64,000 nt of DNA from Phycisphaerae bacterium (lineage in GTDB: Bacteria; Planctomycetota; Phycisphaerae; UBA1845), in contig JAJVHU010000010.1 in assembly GCA_022072505.1 (NCBI GenBank), positions 174,170-238,169 on the forward strand, written 5' to 3'. Below are positions 42,208-47,164 of this stretch, one piece after another (positions within the stretch are counted from its first letter, which is position 1; each line of letters starts with the position of its first letter). Under the pieces are notes generated by a model. It ran no database searches. It was given only the letters and a program-made list of their open reading frames with translations, and was not told where the DNA came from. The position numbers and the translations under genes are program-made.

Positions 42208-42556
42208 CCCGCGATCCGGATTCCGGAATGACGGCGGAATTGTCCGGCACGTCGCGTCGCCGGTCGCCTTTGCGAAACTTGCGGACGGCTGACGCGTGGC
42301 TCGCAGACCGGATCCACCCGACGCGCCGCCCTCTTCGTCCACCTTTGTCTGATGGTGCTCCCCTTCCGACGCCCCGGCCAATGCCCCCGCCGCTGCGCCG
42401 GGAAGGATTTCAATAAAGTTCCGCTCGGGAACCGATCCCATCGTCGGACGTATCATGAAGTAACAGGTTGCCGACACCTGCACGCTGCTTCGGAGGATCT
42501 ACCACCAGGCGACGGTGCATCCTGAACGGGCATCAAGGGCGATCGGAGTGTTGCAC

Positions 42557-43114
42557 ATGCAACGAGACATGAACGTTCTCAGCAACCTTCGCGTCGCATC
42601 GCCGTGCCCGGCATCCTGGGCAAACATGACCGGCGATGACCGCAGCCGCTTCTGCGGCCAGTGCAACCTTCACGTTTACAATCTCTCCGACATGACCCGC
42701 GACGAGGCCGAAAGCCTCCTCCGCCAGCGCGAAGGCCGACTCTGCGTGCGGTACTACCAGCGCGCCGACGGCACGATCCTCACGCGGGACTGCCCGGTCG
42801 GGCTTCGCACGGTTCGGCAGCGCCTGGTGAATACCCTCGCCGGCGTCGCCGCCGCCCTCGGCCTCTTCATATCGGCCCTGACCGCTCTCGGCCGTGGGCG
42901 GCCGAAGCTCAGCAACTCCGACCTCGCCGAGCTTCAGCCGTTCAAGGCCATCCGCGACAAGCTCACGCCCGCGGTAACGACCGTGGCGCCGCCGACCCCG
43001 ACAAACTGGGACGGCGCCGTCCTGATGGGTCGGTTGGCTGCGCCGCCGACTCCGTTTCCCTTTGAACCGACTGGGGAGGGCGTGGAAGGCGACCCGGAAC
43101 CACGGCGGGAGTAA
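42557..43114 (+). CDS. Cys-rich (zinc-ribbon-like) single-pass membrane protein, paralogue A
   Basis: ASPCPASWANMTGDDRSRFCGQCNLHVYNLSDMTRDEAESLL...LCVRYYQRADGTILTRDCPVG, then TM helix LAGVAAALGLFISALTAL, then a Pro/Thr/Ala tail. Confidence 0.7.
   Translation: MQRDMNVLSNLRVASPCPASWANMTGDDRSRFCGQCNLHVYNLSDMTRDEAESLLRQREGRLCVRYYQRADGTILTRDCPVGLRTVRQRLVNTLAGVAAALGLFISALTALGRGRPKLSNSDLAELQPFKAIRDKLTPAVTTVAPPTPTNWDGAVLMGRLAAPPTPFPFEPTGEGVEGDPEPRRE
42641..42798 (+). repeat. 158-bp tract, copy 1, 100% identical to 43269-43426
   Basis: Base-by-base comparison of the two paralogues. Flanks differ at many positions. Confidence 0.9.
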
Positions 43115-43184
43115 CGCCTCGGATCCCAGGCAATACGCCCAAGATTTCCGCGTTTCCCTCGTGACAATGTCGTAGGAGCGATTC

Positions 43185-43805
43185 ATGCCGAAGAACCTCA
43201 GCCTGCTCGACCGCGTCCGTGTCGCCTCGCCCTGTCCGGCGTCCTGGGAAAATATGACCGGCGACGATCGCAGCCGCTTCTGCGGCCAGTGCAACCTTCA
43301 CGTTTACAATCTCTCCGACATGACCCGCGACGAGGCCGAAAGCCTCCTCCGCCAGCGCGAAGGCCGACTCTGCGTGCGGTACTACCAGCGCGCCGACGGC
43401 ACGATCCTCACGCGGGACTGCCCGGTGGGCCTGCGGGCGGTTCGCATCCGGCTCGTCAAGACCCTGGGCGCCGTCGCCGCGGTCGTGGGACTGCTTTTTT
43501 CGGCACTGACCGCCCTCGGTCGCGGGCGCGACACGACGTCCTCGGCGCGCCTTTCACGACTGCAGCCGTTCAGCGCCATCCGGGCGAAGCTCGCGCCGAC
43601 GGTTGCGACATTTGCGCCGCGCAATCCGCCGGCTATCATGGGTTCATTGGTTGGTTACGTCGACTCGGCAGCGCTGGACGAGATCGACGTGCTGAAAGCG
43701 CCGGATTCCCAGAAGTCGCACAACGTTGCGCCCGACCCGCCCCGCCGCCCGACCCGCCTCTGGCAAGACAAGTCGCGCCAAAAGGAACGGAGAAACGCCC
43801 GATGA
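43185..43805 (+). CDS. Cys-rich (zinc-ribbon-like) single-pass membrane protein, paralogue B
   Basis: Same N-terminal domain as paralogue A, then TM helix LGAVAAVVGLLFSALTAL. The tail is diverged. Confidence 0.7.
   Translation: MPKNLSLLDRVRVASPCPASWENMTGDDRSRFCGQCNLHVYNLSDMTRDEAESLLRQREGRLCVRYYQRADGTILTRDCPVGLRAVRIRLVKTLGAVAAVVGLLFSALTALGRGRDTTSSARLSRLQPFSAIRAKLAPTVATFAPRNPPAIMGSLVGYVDSAALDEIDVLKAPDSQKSHNVAPDPPRRPTRLWQDKSRQKERRNAR
43269..43426 (+). repeat. 158-bp tract, copy 2, 100% identical to 42641-42798
   Basis: Base-by-base comparison of the two paralogues. Confidence 0.9.
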
Positions 43806-44290
43806 TCCGCCTCGCCCTGGGACAGTTGTGCGTCTTCGTAACCGTCGTAGCGGTCAACGTCGGCATCTCGATCGAGCGAGGCCGGGGCGTCGGCGGGCGC
43901 GCCCTCGACGACCTCTTTACAATCGCCATCCTTCCCGTCGCCGCCGGCGTCATCGTGGCGGCGCTCGTCGACCACGTTCGGCCCCTCCGCATCCTGAGCC
44001 GCAGAGCGCCGGTCGGGGCAAGGCCGTTTCTCGTCGGCGTGTTCGCGTCTGTGATCACGATTCTGGTCGCCGGCGCTTACATCATGGTCGCGGATATCGC
44101 CGTGCCCGACGCCGCATTGCTGTGCGGCGTTCAGTCGCTGAGCCTCCTGATCATCCTGCTGACGGCGCGCCGCGTCTGGGCCGGGCGGTGCATTCGTTGC
44201 GACTACGATATCCGCGGGTCTCTGGACTCGGGACGCTGCCCCGAATGCGGGGCGGCGATTTCGTCGCTTCGGCGTTCCGCGGTCTACTGA
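43802..44290 (+). CDS. Multi-pass membrane protein with a C-terminal CxxC...CPECG zinc ribbon
   Basis: Four hydrophobic helices, then GRCIRCDYDIRGSLDSGRCPECGAAI. ATGA start/stop overlap with paralogue B. Confidence 0.6.
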   Translation: MIRLALGQLCVFVTVVAVNVGISIERGRGVGGRALDDLFTIAILPVAAGVIVAALVDHVRPLRILSRRAPVGARPFLVGVFASVITILVAGAYIMVADIAVPDAALLCGVQSLSLLIILLTARRVWAGRCIRCDYDIRGSLDSGRCPECGAAISSLRRSAVY

Positions 44291-45177
44291 AACCGCTCAA
44301 GCAACTGCTTACACGCTTTCACGCCGGCAAGTTCATCCGTCGGACCTTCGTACTCGATGCCGACGTAACCGCGGTATCCGGCGTCGAGGACGATCTTCAT
44401 CATCCGGGCGAAGTCGATCGTTGTCTCGTCGCCGGCGTCGTTGAAGGCGTAGCACTTGGCGCTGACCGCCTTGGCCGCGGGCATCAGCTTGCGGATCGAC
44501 TCGTATTTGTCAGCCTCCTTCGGGAAGTTGCCGAAGTCGGGCAGCGTGCCGAAGTTGGGCTTGCCGACCGCGGCGACGACCCTCATCAGCGAACCCGCGT
44601 CGGACGAGAGCCCGCCGTGGTTCTCGATGATGACGTTGAGTTTGTCGGCGGCGGCGAGGTCCGCCAGTTCGGCGAAGCTCTCGGCCCCGCGACGGATCGC
44701 CTCCGCGTCGCCGGGCGCGGCGTTCCCGAAGTTGCAGCGGATCGAGTGACAACCGAGCAGGGCCGCGGCGTCCAGCCACTTCCGGTGATTGCGGACCGCC
44801 TGTTTGCGCACCGCCGGGTCCGCGTGGCCCATGTCGCCCTCGGAGTCGCACATGATGAGGAGAATCTTCACCCCGTGATCGGCGGCGCGTTTGCGCAGAT
44901 CATTGCAGTAGTCGAACGTCGGGGCGGGGAAGAAGTTGTTGACGAGTTCAAGGCCGTCCAGTTCGAATTCCTCGCGCGTCAGCTTCGGCAGGTCGATCTG
45001 CTTGAGCTTGCCGTCAAAAAAAAGGCGATGCACGGACCACGCCGCCAGTGAGATCGAGAATTTCCTCGAGGCGCCGGACTCCTGCGCCGCGGACTCGGCC
45101 GTCAGCGCTCCGCCGACCGCCGCGACCCCCGCCAGACCCGCCGTATCCCGCAGAAACTGTCGTCGCGTCGTGTTCAT
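44284..45177 (-). CDS. Xylose-isomerase-like TIM-barrel sugar phosphate isomerase/epimerase with Tat signal
   Basis: Tat motif TRRQFLRDTAGLAGVAAV. Motifs HSIRCNFG and NVIIENHGG. Confidence 0.8.
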   Translation of the reverse strand: MNTTRRQFLRDTAGLAGVAAVGGALTAESAAQESGASRKFSISLAAWSVHRLFFDGKLKQIDLPKLTREEFELDGLELVNNFFPAPTFDYCNDLRKRAADHGVKILLIMCDSEGDMGHADPAVRKQAVRNHRKWLDAAALLGCHSIRCNFGNAAPGDAEAIRRGAESFAELADLAAADKLNVIIENHGGLSSDAGSLMRVVAAVGKPNFGTLPDFGNFPKEADKYESIRKLMPAAKAVSAKCYAFNDAGDETTIDFARMMKIVLDAGYRGYVGIEYEGPTDELAGVKACKQLLERFQ

Positions 45178-45233
45178 GCGGACATCTTACGGGAGGCTGG
45201 AGATTCTGAGCAACCCAGCACCGGCTTCAGCGC

Positions 45234-45596
45234 TCAGATCAAATCGACAATTCGAACCCGTATCCGACCGGGTTCCACGGTGATAATGGCGCGGTCCGCC
45301 AGGTCATCGGCAAACCGCTGAATCACCTCGATGATGGCCGGCGCCTGCGAGGTCGCGGCGACATCGACAAGCCGGATGATTCCGCAATGCTGTCGCCCGT
45401 GATGGATTGCAAGCAGGCCGAAGTCCTTGTCAAGCGTGATCAGGACGCGCTGCTGCTCTGCGGCGACGCGCAGGATTTCCTCGTCTCCCGGATCCTTTGG
45501 CCAGTCGCCAACCCACTCGACATCGAATCCGGCTTCCCTCAGCGGCTCCTTCGCCTTCCCCCAGACACAGGTGTCAAGGAGAAGTTTCGTCTTCAC
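45234..45596 (-). CDS. DUF5615 (PIN-like/Mut7-C-like) toxin candidate
   Basis: VKTKLLLDTCV...PLREAGFDVEWV...DEEILRVAAEQQRVLITLDKDFGLLA...CGIIRLV. GTGA overlap with the upstream DUF433 gene. Confidence 0.7.
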   Translation of the reverse strand: MKTKLLLDTCVWGKAKEPLREAGFDVEWVGDWPKDPGDEEILRVAAEQQRVLITLDKDFGLLAIHHGRQHCGIIRLVDVAATSQAPAIIEVIQRFADDLADRAIITVEPGRIRVRIVDLI

Positions 45597-45856
45597 GCCT
45601 TGTCTCCGTTCGGGGCAGAGATCGGCGCGTCGAGCCGCTCCTGGGCGACCAGGCGGCGCGCGTACAAGATGCAGGCGCGAACGTCTTCCGGCTCCAGCCA
45701 CGGATATCCCGACAGAATGACCTCCGGCGTGTCGCCCGCCGCCAGCATCCCCAGGACATGCTCCACGGCCAGGCGACGCCCGCGGATGATGGCCTTTCCG
45801 CCGAAGATGGCTGGATTGAATGTGATGCGCGACAGCATTTCGGTTTCGGTCGCCAC
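45593..45856 (-). CDS. DUF433 antitoxin candidate
   Basis: FGGKAIIRGRRLAVEHVLGMLAAGDTPEVILSGYPWLEPEDVRACILYA. Confidence 0.75.
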   Translation of the reverse strand: MATETEMLSRITFNPAIFGGKAIIRGRRLAVEHVLGMLAAGDTPEVILSGYPWLEPEDVRACILYARRLVAQERLDAPISAPNGDKA

Positions 45857-45928: not shown

Positions 45929-47164
45929 CTAACGAAACAAATCCGGGTACACGCCCTTGAGCGTCTCGTTCGCCTTTGCGTTCCGGCGGAGGACGTCCAC
46001 CATCTCCTCGATGCGGGTGAAGAGGCGGCGCGGTTGGCGCGGTTTGCATCGCGTCAGGACGTACTGGGCGATCATCGGGAACGTGATCGACGCGCAGGAG
46101 TAGACGACGACGTTGTTCTTGTGCGCGTCCTTGACCTTGCCCCAGCTTTTCGACTCGGCCGCGGTCGCTCCGGACAGCCCGCCCCAGTGCGGCGCGTCGA
46201 CGCTGAGCTGGATGAAGTAGTCGTGCCCGCCCTTCGTGGTGTCGTAGAGAATCTGGTGCAGCGTCGGCTGGGTCTGCATGTAAAAGTTCTTCGGCGAGCC
46301 GCCGCCGATCTCGATGACGCCGTTGTGATCGGCGTCGCGGACGATCGCGGCGGTTTCGATGACGTCGAGGATCGGATTGAGGTTGACCGGTCGGCCGAAA
46401 AGGTGCGGGACGATGAGATTCATGCCGATCGAGGAGTCGCCCGGCGAGGAGGTGTACACCGGCACGTCGAACTTCGCCGCCTGCGCGACGAAGGATTTTT
46501 CCGGATGCGGCGCGAGCCTGAGCACCTCCCGGCCGAGGGCGTGATGCAGCCTGGCGGTCGAGAAGGGCGTGGCGGTGTCGAAGCGCGAGGCGACGTCCAC
46601 GATGATGCGGTCGGTGGCCAGCAGCGTGTCTTCTCCGGCGATGAAGATGTCGTAAATGCGGACGACGTCCTTCTCGTTCAGGTCGTTGTCGTCAACGTCC
46701 GGGCTGCCCTGCACGACCGGCATGTCGAAGGGGCGGTGCAGATCGTGATAGAGGTTCGCCCCGGTCGAGATGAAGAAATCCACGAAACCGCGCTCGATCA
46801 GAGCGTTGAACACGCCGCTCATGCCGATCGGGGTCATCGCCCCGCTGACGGTGATGGCGATCGTCGCGTTGTCCTCGATCATGCGGCGGAAGGTCTGCGC
46901 CGCGTCCGCCAGCCGCCTCGCGTTGAACCCGCTGCCGGCGTAGACGTGGTCGATCATGTCCGCGGCGGACTCGTTCCCCGGAAGCGCAAGCGGTTCGATC
47001 GTCCGCCCGCTCATGTACGCGTCGTGCGCGGACGCGCCGCTTTCCGCGGCGTCGGACGCGCGGTTCGCGCCGTCCGGCTGAGCGGGCTTTCCAGGACAAT
47101 GACCGGGTCGATGAGGATGATGGGTGTTCATCTGGTTTTCCGAAAGCGAACGTTCATTCGTCAA
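45929..47164 (-). CDS. Deoxyhypusine synthase family protein (bacterial DHS/homospermidine-synthase-like)
   Basis: TIAITVSGAMTPIGMSG...FISTGANLYHDLH...IEIGGGSPKNF. Start uncertain; internal ATGs at 47131 and 47014 are alternatives. Confidence 0.75.
   Translation of the reverse strand: MTNERSLSENQMNTHHPHRPGHCPGKPAQPDGANRASDAAESGASAHDAYMSGRTIEPLALPGNESAADMIDHVYAGSGFNARRLADAAQTFRRMIEDNATIAITVSGAMTPIGMSGVFNALIERGFVDFFISTGANLYHDLHRPFDMPVVQGSPDVDDNDLNEKDVVRIYDIFIAGEDTLLATDRIIVDVASRFDTATPFSTARLHHALGREVLRLAPHPEKSFVAQAAKFDVPVYTSSPGDSSIGMNLIVPHLFGRPVNLNPILDVIETAAIVRDADHNGVIEIGGGSPKNFYMQTQPTLHQILYDTTKGGHDYFIQLSVDAPHWGGLSGATAAESKSWGKVKDAHKNNVVVYSCASITFPMIAQYVLTRCKPRQPRRLFTRIEEMVDVLRRNAKANETLKGVYPDLFR

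Follow-up and report, generated by a model that had tools for sequence, protein, structure and literature searches.

Two adjacent genes in an uncultured planctomycete-like genome, here called A and B, share a 158-bp stretch in which every base is the same, set inside coding sequences that have otherwise diverged. How did two such copies come to be identical over part of one domain, and does the identity reflect a single event or a process that keeps one part of the two proteins alike? The initial annotation of the locus took the sharp boundaries as a sign of ongoing gene conversion or of a very recent partial duplication, either of which would homogenise a zinc-ribbon-like domain while the external tails diversify. 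We used self-comparison of the window (the whole 64,000-nucleotide stretch of DNA analysed here), independent assemblies and homologues from other genomes to address these questions.

The tandem genes and their identical tract

A and B lie head to tail on the plus strand, and their products have 73% amino-acid identity; on recheck, the gene coordinates and the peptides quoted for them in the initial annotation proved correct (Table 1). The protein encoded by A has a Cys-rich domain at its N-terminus (approximately residues 10-82), then a single TM helix and finally a short tail rich in proline, and that encoded by B has the same layout with a longer, charged tail. The AF2 model of B gives residues 11-80 a pLDDT >90 and folds them into a beta-hairpin (30-42) around a CxxC, a helix and additional short strands; a TM helix occupies 83-112, and the tail beyond it is modelled with low confidence. 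In B numbering, the cysteine pattern is a single CxxC (C33, C36) plus three lone invariant cysteines. Neither protein was assigned to a family in searches of Pfam and NCBIfam, the best hit of a PDB profile search was an unrelated protein at E 0.079, and Foldseek with the AF2 model gave a best E of 1.8, its ribbon-like matches being very weak. As no solved structure matches by profile or by fold, the zinc-ribbon-like label for the N-terminal domain is a guess; metal binding is predicted from the five invariant cysteines. A promoter and terminator scan returned nothing beyond shuffled expectation.

Table 1. Coordinates in the window of the genes and segments discussed in the text
Feature	Position	Strand	Basis
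Gene A, 185 aa	42557..43114	+	ORF, GGAG 8 nt upstream; homologues found
Gene B, 206 aa	43185..43805	+	ORF, AGGAG upstream; homologues found
Gene C, 162 aa, multi-TM	43802..44290	+	ORF; weak zinc-ribbon family matches only
Candidate conversion tract, copy in A	42641..42798	+	Exact identity to 43269-43426
Candidate conversion tract, copy in B	43269..43426	+	Exact identity; Logan contig through whole tract, 0 mismatches
Unique segment between repeat copies, 470 nt	42799..43268	+	Separates 42641-42798 from 43269-43426
Accessory segment with A, B and C	42271..44276	.	No counterpart in same-genus genomes

The perfect tract reported in the initial annotation was reproduced in an ungapped self-comparison, where its two copies match at 158/158 positions at an offset of 628; the second-longest exact run at the same offset is 11 nt. 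The repeat is in frame in both genes and spans codons 29-80 plus 2 nt, that is residues 29-81 (RSRFCGQC...TRDCPV). The mismatches that bound it, at 42640 (C/T) and 42799 (C/G), are both synonymous and in the third codon position. Its 5' end lies inside the motif MxGDDRxRFC and its 3' end one codon past DGTILTRDCP, and these are the two top conserved peptide blocks of the family to which A and B belong, picked by the locus search. Homogenisation of the domain thus holds for residues 29-81, with four of the five invariant cysteines of the family, but not for the first ~20 residues of the domain; these, C17 and W21 among them, lie outside the tract and have a dS of ~1.2. Between the two copies, the unique segment comprises the part of A that encodes its TM helix and tail, then 70 nt of spacer, then codons 1-28 of B. 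Only two copies of the tract are present in the assembly of the source genome (a 70-contig MAG, 94.9% complete), and a scan of JGI metagenomes with a 48-mer from the tract gave 0 matches.

At the offset of 628 A and B align without gaps over ~430 nt, and the sequences on both sides of the tract (compared over 42578-42640, parts of 42799-43268, and 43427-43610) are 76% identical upstream (63 nt) and 65% identical downstream (184 nt). Immediately upstream the copies differ as had been claimed, by A22/E22 and several synonymous changes. The downstream part, where everything was said to differ, is indeed diverged, yet it is clearly homologous, with 63% amino-acid identity over the next 60 codons in the same register. 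Synonymous divergence is similar on the two sides, with dS being 1.21 in codons 8-28, 1.09 in codons 81-113 (the TM helix) and 0.99 in codons 81-142, while dN in the flanks is 0.14-0.32. Inside the tract, by contrast, none of 36.3 synonymous sites in codons 29-80 differs (dS 0), against a pS of 0.56 in the flanks (P = 1e-13), and the 95% upper bound on pS in the tract is 0.079. Under the most conservative null, in which amino acids are fully constrained and third positions are free to change at the flank rate, the reference is the set of flank codons that encode the same amino acid, whose third position differs in 31/57 (54%). At that rate, 52 unchanged third positions have P = 2e-18, or 5e-16 when ~250 start positions are allowed for. 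Chance is therefore excluded as the source of the identity, and the saturated flanks set against the lack of any difference in the tract indicate that the duplication is old and the tract young.

The family of A and B and the neighbouring gene C

Searches among the candidates scored recovered 2679 homologues of A and B at E<=0.001, and species-representative genomes contain at least 580 loci of this family. Judged by record title, its members come from Planctomycetota, Acidobacteriota (many of them Pyrinomonadaceae), Polyangiaceae, Vampirovibrionales, a cyanobacterium, Armatimonadota and Elusimicrobia. An alignment of 61 members has A14, C17, W21, M24, G26, C33, C36, V40, C63, R69, D71, G72, C79 and G82 invariant (B numbering). 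Some members carry CarboxypepD_reg-like domains (PF13715/PF13620) in the tail. The best match outside the source genome has 62% amino-acid identity, and a search of four same-genus genomes found no homologue of A or B. No distinguishable orthologues of A as against B were found, so that either copy may have been the donor in a conversion.

The start of gene C overlaps the stop of B (ATGA), and the C-terminus of its product reads CxxCxYD...GRCPECG. Of 29 informative loci, 13 have a C-type gene directly 3' of the A-type gene, and all 13 are from closer relatives. C is likely to be a partner of A and B, and the three probably form one membrane module. In five related genomes, the C-terminal ribbon of C (CxxCxYD...RCPECG) also has between 7 and 31 weak matches in each, which suggests a large expanded set of membrane proteins with such a C-terminal ribbon.

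Nucleotide homology with the genomes G002 and G004 ends at 42262-42270 and restarts at 44277. Both flanking genes are kept in these genomes, with amino-acid identities of 95% (ACT-domain gene) and 92% (AP_endonuc_2 gene), and searches beside either flank in them gave no matches to A, B or C. In G004 the left flank with the ACT-domain gene and the right flank with AP_endonuc_2 are on different contigs. Given their absence from G002 and G004, and the separate contigs of the G004 flanks, we regard A, B and C as an accessory segment located at a synteny break. A foreign composition of the module was considered and rejected, its GC (0.62-0.70) being similar to that of its surroundings. On the right-hand side, C (plus strand) and the AP_endonuc_2 gene (minus strand, 44284-45177) converge, and their 3' ends overlap by 7 nt (44284-44290). 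Homology with G002 and G004 covers 44277-45217 and restarts at 45942; a DUF433/DUF5615 toxin-antitoxin pair (45234-45856) is likewise absent from these two genomes.

Explaining the identity

The explanation that we favour, with a probability of roughly 0.8, is a single gene conversion, recent, short-patch and non-reciprocal, between tandem paralogues of ancient duplication. Under this explanation, A and B would be ancient tandem duplicates with synonymous divergence near saturation, and in a single recent interlocus event at most 158 bp of one copy would have been pasted over the homologous stretch of the other, with the loss of every difference in the core of the Cys-rich domain. The exchange was presumably a non-reciprocal one of the RecA type between misaligned tandem copies, for which the two conserved motifs may have been the only stretches identical enough to anchor strand exchange. 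A patch limited to the highly constrained core would be selectively harmless, so that it could have persisted. Of the two origins proposed in the initial annotation, conversion is the one that the data support, as a tract without differences lies between flanks that are homologous, keep one register and are close to saturation at synonymous sites.

A very recent partial duplication, the other origin proposed there, would fit the sharp boundaries. However, the tract stands in place of homologous sequence, no indel accompanies it and old paralogous flanks lie in one register on both sides, and an inserted or partially duplicated segment of 158 bp was rejected on these grounds. The boundaries could also be those of an embedded element kept identical by selection at the nucleotide level, such as an RNA structure or an overlapping gene; long alternative-frame ORFs do overlap the region, though these are usual at ~66% GC. 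An RNA element in the tract was rejected, the tract giving no RNA structure signal (fold z = -0.78) and no match in an Rfam search. Moreover, the codons of the tract vary synonymously in all other family pairs; for example, in the region equivalent to the tract, about half of the codons for identical amino acids differ in the pairs of loci L008 and L011. Constraint at the nucleotide level does not therefore explain the identity, since homologous pairs elsewhere vary freely at synonymous sites. Insertion and nucleotide-level selection, even taken together, have very little chance of being the correct account.

Another concern is that the identity was produced by assembly, either because graph simplification (bubble-popping or repeat collapse) made similar copies identical or because the tandem arrangement is a mis-join. 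The source genome is a 70-contig MAG, a 158-nt repeat is longer than the usual k-mer sizes, intact A and B proteins are recorded from NCBI only and not from Logan, and bubble-popping in both assemblers could have merged a few paralogue-specific SNPs in the tract. Logan contigs (k=31) covering the neighbouring genes, fetched by exact protein look-up, bear on this indirectly. Contigs from SRR10609163 (L045, listed in two samples) and SRR9827773 (L046) both end at 42670, which is the tract start + 29, and one from SRR10609167 (L041) starts at 43397, the tract end - 29. The contig from SRR10609166 (L044) starts at 43269, the first tract base in B, and continues through the whole tract into B and C. 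All four have 0 mismatches to the window, and an exact repeat with the edges of the tract would make a de Bruijn graph break at just these positions, 42670, 43269 and 43397. As at least four runs, one of them with an accession outside the SRR106091xx series, gave the same edges in their k=31 assemblies, the repeat was not made by one assembler, and one contig crosses the whole tract into B with every base in agreement. A few popped SNPs would in any case leave a tract far more similar than its 65-76% identical flanks. A contig joining the tail of A to the head of B (42770-43111, 42641-43111) was sought by Logan partial-product look-up and not found; the tandem order is accordingly taken from the MAG contig and from the logic of the graph, but a tandem pair followed by a C-type gene is a natural arrangement in other genomes. 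Collapse or mis-joining during assembly is hence an unlikely cause, with only a slim chance of accounting for the identity.

The remaining question is whether the event belongs to recurrent, selection-maintained concerted evolution, in which the metal-binding core would be repeatedly rehomogenised, for instance to suit the shared partner C, while the tails are left free. Tandem arrays of two to four family copies are common, and we compared 18 others: L008, L011, L021, L025, L028 and L029, which come from a class-level genome search and metagenome contigs, and twelve among 80 species representatives. In the tree, tandem copies are the nearest relatives of each other in every genome with pairs, as recurrent homogenisation would predict. 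A few of the other arrays also have identical patches of 29-39 nt, and the longest (36-39 nt), in two Polyangiaceae pairs (L073:2491-3720 and L085:643-1860), are on the RFCGKCEKNVYN knuckle with its CxxC, coinciding with the 5' end of the window tract. This hints that the RFCGKCEKNVYN knuckle is the best homology anchor, and it may be a small conversion hotspot. Repeated independent duplication, however, explains the within-genome sister pattern equally well, so recurrent concerted evolution is not demonstrated by it. In G294 and G264 the duplication is older than the split of the two genomes, and the orthologous copies have stayed unhomogenised since; when the tract columns are removed (leaving 120 columns), A and B are still sisters but with an SH-aLRT of 0.

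The other arrays speak against recurrence too. In all 18, synonymous and non-synonymous differences are spread over the equivalent core, which is 54-76% identical in nucleotide sequence; none has a long tract, their longest exact runs measuring 5-39 nt, and the domain is not homogenised in these arrays. Nor is homogenisation visibly ongoing at the A/B locus, where the flanks, to which the first third of the domain belongs, have a uniformly old divergence (dS 1.0-1.2) and no tracts of intermediate age, so that a single event is all that can be seen. Recurrent concerted evolution thus appears improbable, and one recent conversion continues to be the reading that we prefer.

Consequences and comparison with known systems

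Under that reading, the locus shows short-patch conversion cleanly, in a pair of very old tandem paralogues from an uncultured genome. The mechanism is an ordinary one, conversion of duplicated bacterial genes having long been known, and no new one needs to be invoked. The position of the endpoints in the two most conserved motifs would mean that conversion is still possible between copies at synonymous saturation. In practical terms, phylogenies and divergence estimates for the A/B pair are those of a mosaic, and short-read assemblies will break at the tract. The more interesting object is the family itself, which has five invariant cysteines and no Pfam or NCBIfam model, is present in hundreds of species across several phyla and is paired with a multi-TM zinc-ribbon protein; the family is a question separate from the tract.

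Perfect direct repeats of 158 bp at a distance of 628 bp also lend themselves well to recombination that deletes or amplifies the unit, and deletion would fuse the head of A to the tail of B. It could be imagined, though we think it improbable, that the repeats are kept identical because both paralogues dock to a shared partner, the C product, through the converted core, and that they also serve as a recombination substrate for reversible deletion or amplification of the 628-bp unit. If this were true, a population would be a mix of A-head/B-tail chimeras and of cells with a variable copy number of the envelope-facing tail. Such variants would be invisible in the assemblies examined, as they create no new k-mers.

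The overall architecture of A and B invites comparison with the zinc-binding anti-sigma factors (ZAS, zf-HC2), in which a cytoplasmic metal-binding N-terminal domain is followed by one TM helix and an external tail. A and B are predicted to resemble these in having an N-terminal Cys-rich domain, a single TM helix and a variable tail. They differ, however, in that they lack the HxxxCxxC motif and a Pfam zf-HC2 match, only C33 and C36 forming a CxxC, and in that no sigma-factor gene is adjacent, their neighbours being the ACT-domain gene and gene C. With the motif, the zf-HC2 match and an ECF sigma neighbour all absent, identity with the ZAS anti-sigma factors was rejected. Instead, the conserved neighbour of the A/B type encodes a multi-TM protein whose C-terminus has a CxxC...CPEC ribbon.

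With respect to the conversion itself, gene conversion among repeated genes has been described in Mycobacterium tuberculosis (PMC12046097, PMC13061034), and the cases outlined in these reports share with A and B an exchange of patches between paralogues that is hard to see with short reads. Those cases, as presented there, were demonstrated in populations sequenced with long reads, and a link to antigen diversity is drawn (PMC12046097, PMC13061034). A and B, in contrast, are known from a single MAG, and their patch covers a cytoplasmic-type Cys-rich core.

Interlocus gene conversion between duplicated bacterial genes is exemplified by tufA and tufB in Salmonella and Escherichia coli, where it is recurrent and long-lasting and affects most of the gene. 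A and B would share with the tuf genes non-reciprocal copying that yields identity even at synonymous sites. Concerted evolution has also been the subject of a prokaryote-wide survey (PMC6053082). As far as the account given in that survey extends, A and B are like the surveyed genes in that non-reciprocal copying between paralogues within a genome would have produced identity at the synonymous level amid diverged genes (PMC6053082). In the cases it outlines, conversion is recurrent and long-lasting and affects most of the gene, whereas in A and B it would be one recent patch of at most 158 bp against a saturated background (PMC6053082). A further difference from all of these genes is one of arrangement, A and B being direct tandem neighbours whose homologous positions are just 628 bp apart.
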